From positions 2,059 to 47,116 of the forward strand of contig CAZVVG010000002.1 in the NCBI GenBank assembly GCA_964630615.1: 45,058 nt of DNA. Direction: 5' to 3'. The position numbers were made by a program, and so were the translations under genes. The DNA is from an uncultured Bdellovibrionales bacterium (GTDB lineage: Bacteria > Patescibacteriota > Minisyncoccia > Moranbacterales > UBA2206). Positions 38,242 to 45,058 of this stretch are shown here, piece after piece. Position 1 is the stretch's first letter; each line of letters begins with the position of its first letter. The notes under the pieces are model-generated. The model was given only the letters and a program-made list of their open reading frames with translations. It was not told where the DNA came from and did no database searches.

Positions 38242-38314
38242 GGGCCTGTAGCTTAGTTGGTAGAGCACCTCGTTTGCAACGAGGGGGTCAGCGGTTCAAG
38301 TCCGCTCAGGTCCA
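38242..38314 (+). tRNA. tRNA-Ala (anticodon UGC)
   Basis: Manual cloverleaf. The acceptor gggcctg pairs with caggtcc and includes the G3:U70 alanine identity pair. The anticodon arm is cctcg-tttgcaa-cgagg (TGC) and the T-arm is agcgg-ttcaagt-ccgct. No CCA is encoded. Confidence 0.93.
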
Positions 38315-38320
38315 CTCGTA

Positions 38321-38356
38321 CTTGACATATTCCTTGACATATTCCTTGACAAATTC
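38321..38356 (+). repeat. 12-mer array A: 3 contiguous units (cttgacatattc x2, cttgacaaattc), 6 nt after the tRNA-Ala 3' end
   Basis: Read directly. Confidence 0.9.
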
Positions 38357-38412
38357 AGGTTCGGTCTTGGTTTCTAGGGCTGATTTATTCTTCCCAGTCC
38401 ATATCCCACATT

Positions 38413-38509: not shown

Positions 38510-39328
38510 TTGAAAAATATTAAAAAAAATAAAAAAATCGACCTCCTGATACTTATATTCATTCCGATACTGACTGCTTTTGTGTTGCTGTTTTATCGAG
38601 AAAACTTTCTGATCTCCACAATTTTATTTTTTGGAACCCCGTCTTTATATTTGGCGGTCAGACACAAAAAAGCCCTAAAAAAGACTTTTATTTTCTCCCT
38701 GCTTTTTTCCGTGCCACTCACATTCATATTTGATTATCTTATAGCCAAAGATAAAGGCTGGCATATTGTAAGTTCAATTTTACCTTTTAGAATTTTTGGT
38801 ATTGTTGCCTTCGAGCAATTTATTTGGGCGTTTTTGTGGGTTTTCTATATTGTAATTTTCTATGAGTATTTTTTAGATAAGCAAGAAAAACGGTCGATTT
38901 TTTCATTTTTATTTACCAAGAGCGAAACTATAACTAGGCCGATGGAATATTTTGCGCTCGTTCTGTTTACGTTATTATTATTTTTTACTTTTTTTGCCTT
39001 TTTTTGCCCAACATATTTGAAAATCGATTATGCCTATTTAGTGCTCGGTACAATATTCGGAATAATTCCGCTGTCAATTTTCCTTTTCAAATTCCCAAAC
39101 TTTTCTGTCAGATTTTTAAAAGCCACCTTTTATTTCTTTTTCCTTGCTTTAATCATTGAATATGTTGGGTTGAAATTAAATCACTGGATTTTCCCCGGAA
39201 GCAATTTTATTGGAGTTGAAAATTTTTTTGGGTTCATGATTCCTTATGAAGAAATTATGATTTATTTCGTTTTATCAACCCCCATTGTTCTGTCATATTA
39301 TGAATTTTTTGACGACGACAGGCGGTAA
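38510..39328 (+). CDS. Polytopic membrane protein, possibly lycopene-cyclase-domain family (tentative)
   Basis: TTG start and about 7-8 TM segments. Two internally similar halves carry VAFEQFIW and IPYEEIMIY, which resemble the PxEE-type motif of CrtYc/Yd-like domains. The family call is weak. Confidence 0.7.
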   Translation: MKNIKKNKKIDLLILIFIPILTAFVLLFYRENFLISTILFFGTPSLYLAVRHKKALKKTFIFSLLFSVPLTFIFDYLIAKDKGWHIVSSILPFRIFGIVAFEQFIWAFLWVFYIVIFYEYFLDKQEKRSIFSFLFTKSETITRPMEYFALVLFTLLLFFTFFAFFCPTYLKIDYAYLVLGTIFGIIPLSIFLFKFPNFSVRFLKATFYFFFLALIIEYVGLKLNHWIFPGSNFIGVENFFGFMIPYEEIMIYFVLSTPIVLSYYEFFDDDRR

Positions 39329-39477
39329 GGATAATTTTGCCTATAAATAATCTCGCTATCACTCAGAACCCATTTGCATCAGCTAACACGGCTTAAAAGG
39401 AAAAACTCGTTATAAAAAAGACTAACCGTCGCAAGAGGGGAAAGCAGAGAATAATAAAAAAGGCATAGGTTTCTGCT

Positions 39478-40221
39478 CTATTTTCCGGGTGAGGGCTTTG
39501 CATCTGGATAAAAAAAATAATAATCCCGATAACTGGTCAAGAAATTTTTTAGGTCTTTTTTAATTTTTGCAGCCGCTTGAGTGTTTAGGGGTTGGTTTTT
39601 GTATCTCCTTCGGAAATTAACCGCCCGTTCCACTGTGTCAGCAAATTTGAAATTTGGAAAATGTTGTCTGATTTTTTGAGGTAGTGCCTCTTTTTTAATT
39701 AGGATGCCCTGACTAATCAGCATGGCGTCGGCCATGTTGATGATGTAGCCGACTTGGTTCTTTGGTTTTCTCTTGAAAATATTCCATTGGGGATCCATAT
39801 TGGTTGCGTGCAAATAATTCATTCTTAATTCCGTTTCAAGATCCCGTTTCAATATCTCCCGCACATTAATATTTTTATGAATCTGTTGGCCAAAGAGCAG
39901 TTTGCTTTTTTTGGCTAACTTAATCAAATCTAAATTACCAATGAAACGATAACTCTGGTTTTTTCTGAGCCGTTTGAGAAACTCCGGATAGGACCAGAAA
40001 TGATATTTTATTTCTAAGTGCTTTAATGGAACGGCCTGCTGAAAGTCTATTTTAACTGCTCCCTTTTCCTTTAAAATTATCAAGAGGTCGTAATCACTCC
40101 ATCCGGCAAGATTTTCACCAGACCCAAAGCTACCAGTAGCGTAAAGAGAGACAATATTATTTTTTAGATATTTTTTAGCAATTCTAACAATGCCGGCTTC
40201 AATTTTTTTTATTTCCATCAA
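39478..40221 (-). CDS. Pol-beta-superfamily nucleotidyltransferase with a helical C-terminal domain (ANT/KNTase-like or MNT-HEPN-like fusion)
   Basis: The NTase signature YATGSFGSGENLAGWSDYDLLII fits G[SG]x9-13DxD. The C-terminal helical region contains an Rx4H string (RMNYLH). Confidence 0.8.
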   Translation of the reverse strand: MMEIKKIEAGIVRIAKKYLKNNIVSLYATGSFGSGENLAGWSDYDLLIILKEKGAVKIDFQQAVPLKHLEIKYHFWSYPEFLKRLRKNQSYRFIGNLDLIKLAKKSKLLFGQQIHKNINVREILKRDLETELRMNYLHATNMDPQWNIFKRKPKNQVGYIINMADAMLISQGILIKKEALPQKIRQHFPNFKFADTVERAVNFRRRYKNQPLNTQAAAKIKKDLKNFLTSYRDYYFFYPDAKPSPGK

Positions 40222-40443
40222 TTTTAAAGTGTGACAAATTTATTAATCTTTAGGCAAGCTAAATTTATTTTTTCAGGACTCGGAACCTTTTGGGACAATC
40301 CGGGACTTGAGCGAAATTACAAGGGCCTTCTTTGATTTTATCAAGAAAAAGCATCAACTCCAAATATGGGGGAAGAGTTAATATGCCTGAAAAGGAGTGC
40401 TAAGACTAGGTCTGTTTTTTCTTACCTCTTTGATTTTCTTTCC

Positions 40444-40523
40444 GGTTCCAACCAATTCCCCTGAGGGGTACGCGCTCTTGACAAATCCCTTGACATATTC
40501 ACCTCGTCTTACTTGACAAATCT
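40444..40523 (+). repeat. Module B: GGTTCCAACC motif, cccctgagggg hairpin, then 12-mer array B (cttgacaaatcc, cttgacatattc, 11-nt spacer, cttgacaaatct)
   Basis: Read directly. 40489-40524 matches 44452-44487 with 4 mismatches in 36 nt. Confidence 0.85.
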
Positions 40524-40534
40524 CTCTAAAACTA

Positions 40535-40562
40535 CAGAACTTTCACCGAGTTCTGTTTTTTT
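40535..40562 (+). terminator. Hairpin plus T-run (cagaact ttcaccg agttctg TTTTTTT) closing module B
   Basis: 7-bp perfect stem and 7 T. The stem is identical to the hairpin at 44511-44531. Confidence 0.6.
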
Positions 40563-40613
40563 GCCGGCTAACATCCCGAAACATACCCCCCAAGCTTTTC
40601 CCTAGTCTCCAAT

Positions 40614-40642
40614 TTGGAAAACCCAGCTTTTCAAGGTAAAAT
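40614..40642 (+). promoter_or_regulatory. Candidate promoter of the giant gene
   Basis: TTGGAA, 17 nt, TAAAAT, about 65 nt upstream of the ATG. Confidence 0.35.
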
Positions 40643-40706
40643 AGAGTCAATAAGCTCCAGCCGATAAATCATCAGAATAATTAAATTTTTTAATTAAAAC
40701 ACAACT

Positions 40707-43700
40707 ATGACAGAACAATTTAAGAAATTTGATTTTTCCAAACCCGAAGACCAAAAAGAGTTTAACGCCCTGGAGGCTCAAAAAAAGGCAGAAGTAAGAA
40801 AAGGAGCCGAAGAAGAAGCGGCCAAAGAAGGAATGCTAAAGCGTTTATCCGAAGGTAGTATTTATTCTTCCATACGAATCAAAGATGAATTCAAGCTGCC
40901 GGAAGACTTTGTCCAATCAGCTGAAGTCCAATCAGCAGCCAAAGAAGGAATGCAAAAGTGTTTATCCCGAGGCTATTCTGATTATGCCATACGAATCAAA
41001 GACGAATTCAAGCTGCCGGAAGACTTTGTCCAATCAGCGGTCAAAGAAGGAATGCAAAAGTGTTTATCCCGAGGCTATCTTAGCGATGCCATACGAATCA
41101 AAGACGAATTCAGGCTGCCGGAAGACTTTGTCCAGTTAACCGAAGTCCTCTCAGCGGCCAAAGAAGGAATGCAAAAGCTTTTATCCCAAGGCCATTCTGA
41201 TTATGCCATAGAAATCAAGGACCACTTCAAGTTGCCGGAAGACTTTGTCCAATCAGCTGAAGTCCAATCAGCAGCCAAAGAAGGAATGCTAAAGTGTTTT
41301 TCCCGAGGCTATCTTAGTGATGCTATAAAAATCAAAAACCACTTCAAGCTGCCGGAAGACTTTGTCCAGTCAACCGAAGTCCAATCAGCGGCCAAAGAAG
41401 AAATGCTAGAGCGTTTATCCAAAGGCTATATTAGCGATGCCATAGAAATCAAGGACCACTTCAAGCTGCCGGAAGACTTTGTCAAGCCAGCAGCCGAAGA
41501 AGGAATGCTAAAGCGTTTATCCGAAGGCTATCTTAGCGATGCCATACAAATCAAGGACCACTTCAAACTGCCGGAAGACTTTTTCCAGTCAGTCGTAAAA
41601 GAAGAAATACTAAAGCGTTTATCCCGAGGCGATATTGGTTCTGCCATACGAATCAAAGACGAATTCAAGCCGCCGGAAGACTTTGTCCAATCAGCTGAAG
41701 TCCAATCAACCGCCAAAGAAGTAATGCAAAAGTGTTTATCCCGAGGCGATATTGATTATTTCATAAAAATAAAAGACCACTTCAAGCTGCCGGAAGACTT
41801 TGTCCAGTCATCGGCCAAAGAAGGAATGCTAGATCGTTTATCCCAAGGCTCTATTAATTCCGCCATAGAAATCAAAGACCGATTCAATATCAACATACCT
41901 CAGAGCATTCTATTTCAAGAACTTCCCAAACTTCAAGAATTGGTAAACGAAATAGAGAATCTGGCGCCAGGGTTTAATTTCCAAGTGCAAAAGTCCAGCG
42001 ACTTAGCGATAGAGCTATGTCGTTTTCTAAATGATCCGGATCAAATGATAGACAACGTCCGAGAAAATCCCTTCCTGATCGATGCGCTGACTCGCAACTC
42101 CCGTTTTTCCGCCCGTCTCTTGGTTAAATATCAGGAATTTGACACTCTTTCCCAAGAGAATATCAAGAAACTTTATTCCGCCAAAGAGAAAATCCTGGCC
42201 GCTCATCTGGAAATAGATCCAGAATCCCTGGAATTCCGTCAATTAATTCAGGAGGAATTAAGAGAATACAAAAACAATCCGGAAATAGTCGAGGAAATCA
42301 AAGAGCAGGAGATCAATCTGGAAGAATGGCTCAATTATTCAGAAACCAGCTATTTCAATCTGTCCACCGGCGGAAGTGAAGTCGCTTTCTCGGAAAAAAT
42401 CCATACACCGATCGAGAGGATCAAGGAGACAATCGACAGCTACGCCTATACGCTAAAATCAGTCTTAAAAGAATATCGGCCGGAAATGGAAAAGTTTGAA
42501 ATTATTCTGGAAGACGCCAAGTCGATAGCCGACCAAATAGCCAAAATGGAAGCGGCTTTGAATCAGGCCCGAACTGAGGGCAATGAGAAAAAAGCCCAAG
42601 GCATTGAAAGAGGATTGGCTTCGCAAAAAGAAAAGCTCAACAACTTGAAAAAAGGCTTTCTCTGGGACAAGCTTATGGGTGAAATCGCCGCTTTTCAGCG
42701 ATTGAAAAACGATTGCTTTGACGCGCAAAACAGATTGCTGGAAGCGGAAAACAAATTGGACGAAGCTTTGTCTGGAAAAACACCGTCCGGGAAAATGATC
42801 CAGGATATCAAACAGAAGATAACCCAATCCAAAGAAGAGCTGCGCAATAAATTCAGCGATCTGGAAAAAAGAATCGAGGATTTCAAGACCGAACTGCCGG
42901 GATTGATCTCACCTTGCCTGAGCGCTATCCGAACGGAGGCGCTGCTTCAGGAAATCAATCAAAAAATGGCCGAACAATTCAATCACTTTGATACGGATCG
43001 GACCGATTTAGCTAATCTTTTTTCCGAGCGCGGCGACAAAGAAACCGCGCAACTGGAATCCCGCCCGATGAGCATCTTCGTTTGGGCCAGAAACCCGGAC
43101 ATCGATCTTTATCAAGGCAATTACTCGCCCTGCTGCATTTGCATAGACAGCGCGCATATGGGTGCCGAGTCAACAATCGCCGACTACAATACCGATCTGG
43201 GTGTGCAAATTGTAAACATCTGGGATGAAACCAAAAATGAACCGGTAACCGCCGCCTGGTGCTGGTTAGGGGAGAACGAAAAAGGCGAAACCGCGCTGGT
43301 AGTAGACAATATTGAGTCCAATACGCTATATAGCTTAAACTTTTCCGAGCAATTAACCAAAGAGCTATTCGACTATATCAAAGAATATGCTCAAAAAATT
43401 GGCGCGGATAAAGTAGTTTTAGGCAAAGATAATAATGATTTGCCAACCGGCAGTGAATTGGCCAGGATGCCGGAAGATGGAAATAGCTATGAAAAAATCG
43501 GCGGCAGCAATCGCGCTGACGGCTATTTTTTGGAAGCAGAGGGGAGAAGTGTTAAATCAGTTTGGGAACGAACAAAAAAGCGAACAGAGAAAAAACCCAA
43601 AACGGAAAAACGAATCAAAAAAATTGTCTTTAACAATTTGACAACGACGATAATCAAGGAGAATAACTTAAGCCAGATTTTACAAGCGGAAAGAAAAATC

Positions 43701-44150
43701 TATGCTGGCACGGGATTAATTAGCGGGCAAATCTTAACTGAAGATATTAGGAACAATAACGGTTTTGAATTCTCCTTGGCCATGACTGGCTTAAGGCCTG
43801 GAAAGAAATCGGCAGAAACTGTCGCCTATATCGTAGCCGTGGAAGACGAAACCGACGAAGGCGATCCGTCAATCTACCTTGAAGACATCGCGGTTTTGCC
43901 GGAAGCGCAAAGACAGGGAATCGGCTGGGAAATGATGAAAGAGTTGATTAATAAATTGAAAGCCAAAGCGCAAAGAGAAAACAAGCCGGTCTTACTGGAT
44001 ATGCATTTGCGGGAAACCTCCCAGAATTTTATGGCCAGACACAAAGAAGACCTAGAAAGATTGGGAGTAAAATTAATTGAAGAAGCCCTGGTAGCCGATT
44101 ACTATGAAGAAGGCGAAGATTCACTTTATCAGGTTTACGAAGTGAGATAA
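40707..44150 (+). CDS. 1147-aa multidomain protein: 10 tandem 34/39-aa repeats, a coiled-coil region, a Cys-containing alpha/beta domain, and a C-terminal GNAT N-acetyltransferase
   Basis: No signal peptide or TM segment. The repeats span about aa 38-393. The region aa 400-780 is a heptad-rich helical region. Residues about 786-945 (YSPCCICID...ALVVDNIE...LFDYIKEYAQKIGADKVVLG) look GNAT-fold-like but lack a CoA P-loop. Residues about 972-1147 form a clear GNAT domain (IYLEDIAVLPEAQRQGIGWEMMKELI). Confidence 0.9.
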   Translation: MTEQFKKFDFSKPEDQKEFNALEAQKKAEVRKGAEEEAAKEGMLKRLSEGSIYSSIRIKDEFKLPEDFVQSAEVQSAAKEGMQKCLSRGYSDYAIRIKDEFKLPEDFVQSAVKEGMQKCLSRGYLSDAIRIKDEFRLPEDFVQLTEVLSAAKEGMQKLLSQGHSDYAIEIKDHFKLPEDFVQSAEVQSAAKEGMLKCFSRGYLSDAIKIKNHFKLPEDFVQSTEVQSAAKEEMLERLSKGYISDAIEIKDHFKLPEDFVKPAAEEGMLKRLSEGYLSDAIQIKDHFKLPEDFFQSVVKEEILKRLSRGDIGSAIRIKDEFKPPEDFVQSAEVQSTAKEVMQKCLSRGDIDYFIKIKDHFKLPEDFVQSSAKEGMLDRLSQGSINSAIEIKDRFNINIPQSILFQELPKLQELVNEIENLAPGFNFQVQKSSDLAIELCRFLNDPDQMIDNVRENPFLIDALTRNSRFSARLLVKYQEFDTLSQENIKKLYSAKEKILAAHLEIDPESLEFRQLIQEELREYKNNPEIVEEIKEQEINLEEWLNYSETSYFNLSTGGSEVAFSEKIHTPIERIKETIDSYAYTLKSVLKEYRPEMEKFEIILEDAKSIADQIAKMEAALNQARTEGNEKKAQGIERGLASQKEKLNNLKKGFLWDKLMGEIAAFQRLKNDCFDAQNRLLEAENKLDEALSGKTPSGKMIQDIKQKITQSKEELRNKFSDLEKRIEDFKTELPGLISPCLSAIRTEALLQEINQKMAEQFNHFDTDRTDLANLFSERGDKETAQLESRPMSIFVWARNPDIDLYQGNYSPCCICIDSAHMGAESTIADYNTDLGVQIVNIWDETKNEPVTAAWCWLGENEKGETALVVDNIESNTLYSLNFSEQLTKELFDYIKEYAQKIGADKVVLGKDNNDLPTGSELARMPEDGNSYEKIGGSNRADGYFLEAEGRSVKSVWERTKKRTEKKPKTEKRIKKIVFNNLTTTIIKENNLSQILQAERKIYAGTGLISGQILTEDIRNNNGFEFSLAMTGLRPGKKSAETVAYIVAVEDETDEGDPSIYLEDIAVLPEAQRQGIGWEMMKELINKLKAKAQRENKPVLLDMHLRETSQNFMARHKEDLERLGVKLIEEALVADYYEEGEDSLYQVYEVR
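40818..41885 (+). repeat. Intragenic tandem repeat, 10 units of 102 or 117 nt
   Basis: Units begin at aa 38, 77, 111, 150, 189, 228, 262, 296, 335 and 369. The consensus is AAKEGMLKRLSxGxxxxAIxIKDxFKLPEDFVQS(AEVQS). Long stretches are identical at nucleotide level between units. Confidence 0.95.
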
Positions 44151-44218
44151 TCAAATACGTCCCAGAAAATTCCAAGGAGAAAGTAAAAGTCTTTAGGAAA
44201 AATAGAAATCTTTAGAAA

Positions 44219-44244
44219 GCAAGGACAAAACCTCCTTGCTTTTT
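44219..44244 (+). terminator. Rho-independent terminator of the giant gene
   Basis: gcaagga caaaacc tccttgc followed by ttttt. Confidence 0.7.
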
Positions 44245-44262
44245 CTCTTTCCAAAACCCCCC

Positions 44263-44291
44263 GGTTCCAACCGATGAACGTCAGGTACTCC
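44263..44291 (+). repeat. Extra copy of the GGTTCCAACCGATGAA...AGGT motif
   Basis: The first 16 nt are identical to 44401-44416 and then diverge. A shorter GGTTCCAA lies at 44349-44356. Confidence 0.7.
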
Positions 44292-44400
44292 TTAGCGGAT
44301 TTTTGAAAAATTAAAGGTGTTTCAGGTTTCAAACAAAACTAAAAAGCTGGTTCCAATACCTGTCTCAACTTGTCCCATTTCTTCAATTCTGACACGATTT

Positions 44401-44510
44401 GGTTCCAACCGATGAAGCCGAGGTCCACTTGACATATTCCTTGACAAACCCCTTGACATATTCACCTCATCTTACTTGAGAAATTCCTTGACCTATCTCT
44501 TGACAAACCC
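44401..44510 (+). repeat. Module C: GGTTCCAACC motif, AGGTCCAC (identical to the tRNA-Ala 3' acceptor end), then 12-mer array C (6 units with one 11-nt spacer)
   Basis: The units are cttgacatattc, cttgacaaaccc, cttgacatattc, [acctcatctta], cttgagaaattc, cttgacctatct, cttgacaaaccc. Confidence 0.85.
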
Positions 44511-44539
44511 CAGAACTCCAACCGAGTTCTGTTTTTTTT
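44511..44539 (+). terminator. Hairpin plus T-run (cagaact ccaaccg agttctg TTTTTTTT) closing module C
   Basis: Same stem as 40535-40555 and 8 T. Confidence 0.6.
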
Positions 44540-44597
44540 ATTCTCCGCTTACCAACATCTTTTAACTATCAGATATTTATGATATATTTACCTCAGA

Positions 44598-45058
44598 ATG
44601 CCAATCAAAATCGTCGACAAAAAACGCTTCTGTCTTTTTATCTCCCTGGTTATCAGCTTGGTAGTTTTTTTGGTCTTCGGAGTGTATTGGTTCTATGAAA
44701 ACTCCAAACTCAAACCTCTCAATTCCCAGGCAACTACCAGTGAGTTCTTAAACTCCCTCCAAGTTTCCAAAGAAAGCTACTTCCAGAAAGAACCCCTTAC
44801 CACCAAAGAACTCAAGCTTCTTAAAGAAAAACAACCGGAGCTCTTTTCTTCTTCCTCCCAAAGAAGAAGCGAAGCGATCATTAAAGAACACCAGACCCTC
44901 CTTGAATCCATCTCTAAGAATAAACTCGGTCTTCCTAAGGACCAAAACCAGCTCAAAGCCCTAAGTTTCCTCAAGAAACTCTCCCTTAATCCGTATCCCT
45001 TCCCATCTTCCAAAAACTCCCAATCTCTCTTAAACAAGCTCAAAGCCCAAAACTCCCT
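44598..45058 (+). CDS. Hypothetical membrane-anchored protein, 3'-truncated by the window edge (not in the supplied ORF track)
   Basis: Manual translation from ATG 44598 is open to the end of the window: MPIKIVDKKRFCLFISLVISLVVFLVFGVYWFYENSKLKPLNSQ... It has an N-terminal TM anchor. Codon choice is C-ending (ctc, tcc, ccc), unlike the core genes. Confidence 0.5.
   Translation, partial: MPIKIVDKKRFCLFISLVISLVVFLVFGVYWFYENSKLKPLNSQATTSEFLNSLQVSKESYFQKEPLTTKELKLLKEKQPELFSSSSQRRSEAIIKEHQTLLESISKNKLGLPKDQNQLKALSFLKKLSLNPYPFPSSKNSQSLLNKLKAQNS

Follow-up and report, generated by a model that had tools for sequence, protein, structure and literature searches.

Several described systems resemble, in part, the protein considered here. 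In NatA an α-solenoid, the TPR scaffold Naa15, is paired with the GNAT-fold acetyltransferase Naa10. In N-myristoyltransferase a GNAT-like domain lacking the P-loop accompanies a GNAT that binds coenzyme A (CoA), and MshD, Eis and Legionella VipF are further tandem-GNAT enzymes with one non-catalytic half. Among repeat proteins, the ankyrin, HEAT and TPR/Sel1 arrays of effectors display surface-restricted variation, changing copy number and families of paralogues, and the TALE, PPR and PUF proteins are hairpin solenoids of similar units, of 34, 35 and 36 residues respectively, with localized variation. Here we consider an open reading frame (ORF) at 40707–44150 (+ strand, stop codon included) in a 45,058-nt stretch of contig CAZVVG010000002.1, from an uncultured bacterium of ultra-small type, referred to below as the window, to whose full length all coordinates refer. 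It encodes a protein of 1147 residues in which a repeat array, a helical region, a Cys-containing GNAT-like domain and a canonical GNAT follow one another. An initial annotation of the window, made from the sequence alone, had recognized both the ORF and this order of domains; the ORF is real and the parsing stands.

Scans of Pfam, NCBIfam, PADLOC and PHROGs with the whole protein and with its segments showed only the C-terminal GNAT to match a curated family, and about 85% of the protein is without a match in Pfam, NCBIfam or the PDB. The catalytic domain is of a known kind; the repeat unit, two middle helical regions (mid1 and mid2) and the Cys-containing domain, which we call CC/DNIE, are without a match among curated families and solved structures. 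No description of the family was found in the literature searched on acetyltransferases and repeat proteins of Patescibacteria (the candidate phyla radiation) or on Minisyncoccus. The architecture is real, widespread and unannotated, with an unusual, evolvable array, and it is its function that we infer. We tentatively read the protein as a soluble, multi-domain, adaptor-guided and acetyl-CoA-dependent protein acetyltransferase from an undescribed superfamily centred on Patescibacteria. The initial suggestion that a recognition array targets an acetyltransferase holds up. The protein is taken to be soluble because it is acidic overall and has no hydrophobic segment, neither a signal peptide nor a transmembrane segment being found (maximum KD19 hydropathy 0.88). 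Its structure was predicted in two AlphaFold models built from family alignments, one of the N-terminal 780 residues (mean predicted local distance difference test, pLDDT, 85.9) and one of the C-terminal 379 residues (mean pLDDT 69).

The C-terminal GNAT and the CC/DNIE domain

Judged by sequence and model, the C-terminal domain (residues 986–1147 plus the stop codon, 43662–44150, +) belongs among the true GNATs and is of the N-terminal-acetyltransferase type, similar to Naa10, Naa50 and RimI, with the predicted sites for CoA and the peptide backbone intact. Pfam Acetyltransf_1 (PF00583) matches residues 1037–1087 with an E-value of 3.8e-7 and 30.8 bits against a gathering cut-off of 20.7, and Acetyltransf_7 is also above its cut-off (27.8 against 27). 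The CoA pyrophosphate motif appears as QRQGIG at residues 1068–1073, matching Q/R-x-x-G-x-G/A. The canonical GNAT of the initial annotation is therefore confirmed and, at sequence level, it keeps its acetyl-CoA motif.

Five residues are invariant in 19 family sequences, namely Y999, Y1057, H1100, Y1133 and G1073, the last being the second Gly of the CoA motif. In the model, Y999 lies in the α1–α2 loop, just after α1, Y1057 in β4 and the DMHLR stretch (1098–1102) in β5, and Y1132 and Y1133 are found between the β6 and β7 strands. Two tyrosines of the β6–β7 loop and one of the α1–α2 loop, hydrogen bonding to the substrate backbone, are hallmarks of N-terminal acetyltransferases (reviewed in PMC7078549); Y1132, Y1133 and Y999 correspond to them. 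Residues 976–1146 are modelled in the order β1-α1-α2-β2–4-α3-β5-α4-β6–7 at pLDDT 80–95. A Foldseek search of the PDB with this model gave 249 matches at E ≤1e-3. The 50 best (E 4.5e-9 to 1e-5) are all GNAT-fold acetyltransferases and nearly all N-terminal acetyltransferases, including Naa10 (in NatA and NatE), Naa50, Naa20/30, archaeal Ard1 and RimI; each of the top 36 is one of these or the Coxiella acetyltransferase CBU0801, and none of the 50 is described as a toxin-antitoxin acetyltransferase. In a phmmer alignment with yeast Ard1 (4xnh_B), LDMHLRETSQ is placed opposite VSLHVRQSNR and YYEEGEDS opposite YYQDGEDA.

The domain thus resembles the Naa10/Naa50/Ard1/RimI cluster in its GNAT fold, the Q-x-x-G-x-G motif, the MHLR/LHVR of β5 and the loop tyrosines, but identity is just 12–19% and the RimI equivalog model of NCBIfam (TIGR01575) scores only 19.4 bits against a cut-off of 86.4, so that the protein is not a RimI orthologue. 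Unlike N-terminal acetyltransferases, moreover, it lies behind some 985 residues of repeat, helical and CC/DNIE regions, a fusion without counterpart among described enzymes of this class.

A Lys/Arg-rich linker (residues 956–985, 43572–43661, +), which includes KKRTEKKPKTEKRIKK, joins the GNAT to the CC/DNIE domain. The linker is modelled at low pLDDT and the region 950–985 has a net charge of +9 and a pI of 10.6. CC/DNIE itself (residues 784–955, 43056–43571, +) is the best-conserved segment of the protein, being 51–88% identical in relatives by segment-wise BLAST compared with 47–77% for the GNAT, and was further delineated by its invariant columns and by profile searches. It carries the motifs GNYSxCC, DY.TD, AAWCW, DNIE, NDLP and GYYLEAE. 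Across 41 sequences, 28–54% identical to the domain studied here, R795, G804, C809, C810, D867 and E870 are invariant, and near-invariant residues are found in DY.TD, AAW, DN(I/V)E, ND(L/I), K.GG and YYLE.

Scanned alone, CC/DNIE gives no Pfam match, and a search of the PDB with its profile yields nothing significant. The best match, with a non-significant E-value of 0.085, is to 3g8w, which we take to be a GNAT-family acetyltransferase, and is aligned at α3–β5. The model places β2-β3-β4-α3-β5 in GNAT order at pLDDT 60–80. When compared by hhalign, CC/DNIE and the family's own GNAT are collinear, DNIE pairing with EDIA at the end of β4 and GYYLEAE with DYYDEGED, in a match that falls short of significance. 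Foldseek aligns the two-domain model with viral N-myristoyltransferases over 350–364 columns (E 4e-4 to 3e-3) at a TM-score of 0.2–0.25. As read directly from the sequence, CC/DNIE is without the Q/RxxGxG/A loop, so any donor binding would be by other means. The domain is thus probably a GNAT-like fold lacking the CoA P-loop; the support is consistent, not conclusive. The earlier view of it as a degenerate GNAT with no P-loop accordingly gains moderate backing from the order of elements, the collinear though non-significant profile comparison and the Foldseek alignments. The likeness to N-myristoyltransferase, in which a GNAT-like domain without P-loop is likewise combined with a CoA-binding GNAT, comes with differences: the order is reversed, it being the N-terminal half of N-myristoyltransferase that binds CoA, and in the present family the non-canonical half is the more conserved and often occurs without a GNAT.

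The repeat array and the middle helical regions

Residues 38–401 (40818–41909, +) form ten helical-hairpin repeats of 34 or 39 residues, defined using Tandem Repeats Finder, the AlphaFold model, positional entropy and counts of nonsynonymous and synonymous differences. Tandem Repeats Finder reports an array with periods of 102 and 117 nt at 40817–41887. The units start at residues 38, 77, 111, 150, 189, 228, 262, 296, 335 and 369, hence at spacings of 34 or 39, and have the consensus AAKEGMIxxLSxGxIDxAIxIKDxFxLPEEFVQS. All ten units recognized initially are present but their description as near-identical was overstated: the array is far beyond chance, yet units 1–9 share 77–89% DNA identity, the degenerate unit 10 only 60–69%, and amino-acid identity between units averages 65%.

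The repeats are modelled at pLDDT above 90 throughout as a helical-hairpin solenoid. Each unit consists of a 17-residue helix (EDFVQS-AAKEGMLKRLS), a three-residue turn at a conserved Gly, a 10-residue helix (xxxAIxIKDx) and an FKLP connector; the five additional residues of the 39-residue units make a short break within the long helix. No Pfam match to TPR, HEAT, ankyrin or Sel1 was obtained for residues 38–401, and a PDB sequence search of the array returned nothing significant. The 34/39-residue unit therefore differs in sequence family from the ankyrin, HEAT and TPR/Sel1 arrays that it resembles in behaviour, and no known structural family could be assigned to it by Pfam or PDB sequence searches. 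Matches to YicC, ApoLp-III, a Type I specificity subunit and a phage head protein were rejected: each has zero significant stretches and is spurious, since its score is summed over repeats. Pfam matches to RGCC, Peptidase_M78 and DnaB_2 in repeat-bearing relatives, placed inside the arrays, are the same artefact. The array has a net charge of -10 and a pI of 5.4, and by segment BLAST is 25–59% identical in relatives.

The distribution of variation within the unit was assessed in 300 units from 42 proteins. Positions A1, A2, K3, L10, G13, A18, I21, K22, F25, P28 and S34 are conserved (entropy 0.4–1.1 bits), positions 8, 9, 12, 14, 17, 24 and 26 are hypervariable (3.1–3.5 bits), and 16 and 20 are intermediate. 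In helix 2 the variable polar positions 14, 16/17, 20 and 24 alternate with the hydrophobic core positions 15, 18/19, 21 and 25, so that the variable positions would form, with the inter-helix turn, one exposed stripe rather than being buried. The initial annotation had seen the variation as concentrated in the four or five residues after LSxG; it is in fact spread more widely, over positions 9, 12, 14–17, 20 and 24. Comparison of the ten units of the gene with one another gives 543 nonsynonymous against 104 synonymous pair differences and, at positions 12, 14–17, 20 and 24, nearly all pair differences are nonsynonymous. This pattern fits homogenized DNA combined with selection for change on one face.

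The number of units is equally labile. Orthologues whose cores are 70–90% identical have from two to 16 units, so the gene is not a uniform conserved core gene; one of them (P0005) has four units where the present protein has ten, although mid2 is 91% identical between the two. In six Falkowbacteria-type proteins (P0023, P0025 and P0027–P0030) the heads and tails are 99.4–100% identical, no more than 14 of about 1700 residues being mismatched, and the only other differences are insertions or deletions of 34, 39, 42, 73 and 76 residues inside an array of 18–23 units. These reflect either true copy-number polymorphism in the population or the collapse of repeats in short-read assembly. Five proteins (P0032, P0037, P0038, P0039 and P0041) at first seemed to have only the repeats in common with the present protein. 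In their tails, however, divergent versions of the CC/DNIE motifs are present with a GNAT behind them. The 34/39-residue repeat is thus no promiscuous repeat but an N-terminal module specific to lineages within one superfamily.

The array is preceded by a short cap (residues 1–37, 40707–40817, +) with similar N-termini in relatives. An acidic motif within it, MPExFxxFDFSKxEDQKxFxxL (residues 1–28, 40707–40790), is also found in P0004, P0005, P0006, P0011, P0020 and P0041, the last of which belongs to a distant sub-family. A function in docking or as a tag for export is conceivable.

Between the array and CC/DNIE lie the two helical regions that, with CC/DNIE, make up the core of the family. 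The first, mid1 (residues 402–560, 41910–42386, +), is characterized by the motif ENPFL..A...NP.FG..LL.KY..FD and is 40–65% identical in relatives. The second, mid2 (residues 561–780, 42387–43046, +), is a bundle of long helices or a coiled coil, 39–91% identical in relatives, with six helices of 19–41 residues (561–588, 604–623, 627–645, 652–689, 695–734 and 740–772) modelled at pLDDT 75–90. What had been described as 380 residues of heptad-rich helix is consequently two regions: the long helices are indeed found at residues 561–780, but residues 402–545 are modelled as a dozen short ones. No Pfam or PDB match was found for mid1, and a PDB sequence search of the middle region as a whole gave nothing significant.

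Family, proposed function and alternatives

A profile of CC/DNIE made from 15 family sequences was used in an exhaustive search of 1.84 billion representative proteins, each standing for a cluster at 50% identity. At least 606 representatives were retrieved at E ≤1e-3, and 126 at E ≤1e-30. Most belong to Patescibacteria and a smaller part to Omnitrophota, Melainabacteria and other groups; some of these lineages are among the least understood in bacteria. In a scan of one genome per species, relatives were seen in 146 stretches, most of them again in Patescibacteria, where carriers include Buchanan-, Falkow-, Moranii-, Pacei-, Parcu-, Gracili-, Vogel- and Harrisonbacteria, along with the cultured archaeal parasite Minisyncoccus archaeiphilus (L032). 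Outside this group, relatives were seen in Omnitrophota, WOR-1 and Gastranaerophilales/Vampirovibrionales, as well as in a few metagenome-assembled genomes with doubtful taxon labels. None of 2.9 million viral contigs held a relative, and an origin in phage was rejected on that ground.

A further 146 representatives from the profile search were classified with local hidden Markov models. In 100 of them mid1 and mid2 are followed by CC/DNIE at the very C-terminus, without a GNAT, and 18 of these have recognizable 34-residue units; a GNAT tail is present in ten, and the remainder are fragments or more distant architectures. Co-occurrence of mid1 with mid2 and the Cys domain was observed in over 100 of the 146. 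A conserved helical region plus CC/DNIE is thus the family core, to which N-terminal solenoid arrays, of the 34/39-residue repeat or of HEAT repeats, are added in varying number and sequence, and the GNAT tail may be fused, absent or encoded by a separate downstream gene. This was missed in the initial annotation, which did not see that the helical region and the Cys domain are the conserved core of a large family with an optional GNAT. Since most members lack a GNAT, CC/DNIE must have a role of its own.

Individual loci illustrate the range. At one (L005) the core protein stops after CC/DNIE and a gene for a 167-residue GNAT follows 27 nt downstream; at two others (L003 and L004) there is a true stop after CC/DNIE and no GNAT in the rest of the contig. 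A distant relative, P0166, combines HEAT repeats, CC/DNIE and GNAT. In an Omnitrophota single-cell genome a protein of 3375 residues (L049:3003–13127) continues after CC/DNIE and GNAT into receiver and histidine-kinase ATPase domains. CC/DNIE and GNAT, fused in the clade of the present protein and again in distant proteins, would thus appear to be functionally linked, yet separable. Several genomes contain paralogues, two or more per assembly, with different N-termini (L027/L029, L007/L008 and L073), in one case as two adjacent genes (L073:3007–8537). A Gastranaerophilaceae protein of 3987 residues (L084:2013–13973) has two CC/DNIE domains.

No conserved gene neighbourhood was found among the related loci, the only recurrent partner being the occasional split GNAT. 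The neighbours vary between genomes: in one case rpoD/dnaG lie upstream, and a Peptidase_S24 gene and ftsK follow downstream in that order, while elsewhere a Peptidase_M23 gene is found.

In the model that we tentatively favour, that of an adaptor-guided acetyltransferase, the GNAT would do the chemistry, an acetyl transfer of the Naa10/Naa50/RimI type for which the predicted CoA motif and the peptide-backbone tyrosines are kept. CC/DNIE would most likely pack on the GNAT to form a pseudo-dimer of the kind seen in N-myristoyltransferase, MshD and Eis, and may contribute either a conserved pocket for the substrate or another catalytic site. A rigid scaffold or spacer would be formed by mid1 and mid2. 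The array, judging from its evolution, would be a recognition surface able to evolve, its partner most likely a protein, and would select the site of action; gain and loss of units together with replacement of exposed residues would retarget the enzyme. The target may be a protein of the bacterium itself or of a host. An adaptor role for the array is suggested because the solenoid is confidently modelled, the variable positions are polar, nonsynonymous differences exceed synonymous ones by 543 to 104, orthologues have two to 16 units, whole units are inserted or deleted, and HEAT repeats can take its place.

Several points weigh against this model. The activity is a predicted one and any substrate or partner putative, and the relative orientation of domains in the models is unreliable (predicted TM-score 0.48–0.49). 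CC/DNIE exceeds the GNAT in conservation, and for most of the family (the 100 of 146 above) it is the last domain, with no GNAT after it; its own function, possibly catalytic, is not accounted for. The first 45 residues of CC/DNIE, among them the invariant Cys-Cys, do not reach pLDDT 50 in the model, and its hhalign match to the GNAT is not significant (global P 0.0012, probability 7.8%). Within the GNAT, a few orthologues have E, Q or K in place of the first Gly of the CoA motif. Finally, the array might bind nucleic acid rather than protein: the best Foldseek matches of the N-terminal half, weak as they are, are PPR proteins.

Some of these points find a place in an alternative that we regard as possible if doubtful, in which CC/DNIE is the real enzyme, an acyl- or aminoacyl-transferase related to GNATs that employs its Cys-Cys and Asp/Glu and a donor other than acetyl-CoA, the GNAT being accessory or regulatory. 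The standing of CC/DNIE as the most conserved segment, with six residues (R, G, C, C, D and E) invariant over 41 sequences, its terminal position without a GNAT in most members, the existence of the GNAT as a separate gene and the missing CoA P-loop are all consistent with such a role. Yet the domain matches no known catalytic family and has no invariant His for a Cys-His dyad. Furthermore, even very distant lineages combine it with a GNAT, which favours joint action of the two domains over an incidental add-on.

An extension of the favoured acetyltransferase model is similarly speculative. The family might constitute a 'programmable' protein-modifying superfamily in ultra-small, host-dependent bacteria, with a retargetable new class of repeat and a two-part CC/DNIE–GNAT head, directed at host, phage or own targets and serving as an acetylation-based effector or immunity-like system. 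A more specific version, in which the protein is an exported effector of an episymbiont that acetylates host proteins and whose array tracks variable host targets, is a special case of the favoured model and, although appealing in view of how these lineages live, seems to us unlikely. The family is indeed centred on Patescibacteria, including the parasite Minisyncoccus archaeiphilus, and is seen also in Omnitrophota and Vampirovibrionales; the array displays diversification and copy-number change, paralogues occur within genomes, and the motif conserved at the N-terminus might mark the protein for export. However, the protein is without signal peptide or transmembrane segment, no secretion-system genes are nearby, some of the taxon labels mentioned above are unreliable, and many members come from Gastranaerophilales, which are not known to be episymbionts. 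Were the targets to be host proteins, few candidate classes of effector would have preceded this one in episymbiotic Patescibacteria.

Decidedly unlikely is a housekeeping role as a single-chain analogue of NatA that docks on the ribosome or another conserved machine and acetylates nascent N-termini. NatA and the present protein are functionally analogous in pairing an α-solenoid with a Naa10-like GNAT, and the closest structures to the GNAT are those of Naa10 in the NatA and NatE complexes. Solenoid auxiliary subunits are among the weak Foldseek matches of the N-terminal half (9f1b_DB and 9fpz_B, E around 0.1), and some homologues stand beside translation or transcription genes: one (L003) begins 5 nt after the gene of a tRNA-synt_2-type aminoacyl-tRNA synthetase, itself preceded by greA, and another (L002) follows rpoD. 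Against this, the present protein is one polypeptide with a hypervariable, non-TPR solenoid of changing copy number and an extra CC/DNIE domain, and binding to the ribosome could be proposed for it only by analogy. An array that evolves rapidly, with variable unit number and nonsynonymous excess, fits poorly with docking on a conserved surface. In addition, several genomes have at least two paralogues with different N-termini, most family members are without a GNAT, gene context is not conserved and, at 19.4 against 86.4 bits, the GNAT is not the RimI equivalog.

We consider it very improbable that the array is a modular reader of DNA or RNA, like those of TALE and PPR proteins, that delivers the acetyltransferase to a nucleic acid, possibly the 12-mers flanking the gene. 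The initial annotation had drawn the comparison with code-type binders, and the unit length, the two-helix hairpin and the localized variation among similar units are shared with them. Residues D, N, S, H and Y are frequent at the variable positions, more than 80% of units keep Lys3 and Lys22, 12-mer arrays do stand on either side of the gene, and the top Foldseek matches of the N-terminal half are designer PPR proteins on RNA or single-stranded DNA (E 9e-4 to 2e-2). These matches, however, have TM-scores of 0.12–0.27 and root-mean-square deviations of 14–25 Å, and in structural terms the similarity looks like a generic likeness among helical hairpins of 34–35 residues; the 17- and 10-residue helices differ from those of PPR. 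No PPR, TAL or PUF match was found in Pfam at E-values up to 1, nor in PDB sequence searches. The analogy with a code is not supported by the variation itself, which involves eight or nine positions and no discrete alphabet: 77 units contain 69 distinct tetrads at positions 14–17, and the six commonest residue pairs cover just 27–44%. HEAT repeats, a protein-binding class, occupy the same position in distant relatives, and the 12-mer is present at none of 85 related loci, so that the proposed link between protein and flanking arrays is not supported. The acidity of the array (net charge -10, pI 5.4) is a weak argument. TALE and PPR units are not known to be basic overall either, and the argument from net charge was downgraded for this reason.

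The toxin-like GNAT also floated initially is not supported. Toxins of the TacT, AtaT or ItaT type are small, stand-alone GNATs with an antitoxin gene beside them, whereas the present protein has 1147 residues, no small toxin-antitoxin-type partner gene on either side, no real PADLOC match and no relatives on viral contigs.

A description of CC/DNIE and of the 34/39-residue repeat would annotate a sizeable piece of the 'dark matter' of Patescibacteria. The repeat, a predicted solenoid with a clear variable face, is also a possible binder scaffold and would offer a natural example of retargeting by unit number.

The locus and its flanking elements

A tRNA-Ala gene at 38242–38315 lies 2.4 kb from the ORF, as expected from the tRNA-adjacent position noted at the outset, and the upstream neighbours of the ORF in the window are a small membrane protein, nearest the tRNA, and then a nucleotidyltransferase. 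The latter, of 247 residues, is encoded divergently (39478–40221, -) and matches Pfam NTP_transf_2 (E 4.5e-7) and, weakly, the PADLOC 'oligonucleotide cyclase' entry (E 8e-4). The G+C content is not unusual. The GC skew at 39001–45000 is slightly negative (-0.03 to -0.04) despite the large gene on the + strand; in all other 3-kb blocks of the window, also with mostly + strand genes, it is positive (0.08–0.25).

The gene has no Shine-Dalgarno sequence, as the initial annotation had observed. This is uninformative, since only three of 46 + strand genes in the window have a similar motif within 20 nt upstream of the start; to judge from these sequences, translation initiation in the organism appears to be largely independent of Shine-Dalgarno pairing. 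The promoter-like element claimed for the gene did not survive scrutiny: the match at 40614–40642 (9/12) is no better than chance, with 16 such sites found against 12.2 expected. About 70 nt past the stop codon, a hairpin GCAAGGA-caaaacc-TCCTTGC followed by TTTTTCTCTTT can be read directly from the sequence at 44219–44250. It is not in the list produced by the terminator scan, but would be better placed as a candidate terminator than the hairpin inside the downstream repeat element.

The 12-mer CTTGACAWAYYC has 13 matches in the window where 1.4 are expected, and recurs in tandem in three + strand arrays, of three to at least five copies, each followed by a hairpin and a T-run. Two of these, as first reported, flank the gene. 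The upstream intergenic element (40444–40562, +) consists of GGTTCCAACCAAT, three copies of the 12-mer, and the hairpin with T-run; the downstream one (44401–44538, +) of GGTTCCAACCGAT, at least five 12-mers, and again hairpin and T-run. Both of these copies begin with GGTTCCAACCRAT and they are clearly paralogous. The third array directly follows the tRNA-Ala gene (38316–38390, +), and a further site lies at 44263–44275. A sequence ahead of the downstream array, AGGTCCAC, is similar to the tRNA 3' end. An Rfam scan of the window found the tRNA-Ala only, the intergenic element being without a match; it is also absent from the 85 related loci. It may have arisen as a duplicate of a tRNA trailer or be an att-like remnant, but a small-RNA gene and a set of boxes resembling -35 elements are further possibilities; its upstream copy adjoins the gene but need not belong to it.

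Short intergenic tandem arrays, with periods of 8–15 nt and three to eight copies, are common in the loci from Patescibacteria, their sequence differing from genome to genome (for example L001:3368–3440, L015:8266–8340 and L010:3571–3627). They do not consistently adjoin the family gene. At one locus (L040:7204–9507) a series of 8-mer arrays is spaced about 250–300 nt apart.

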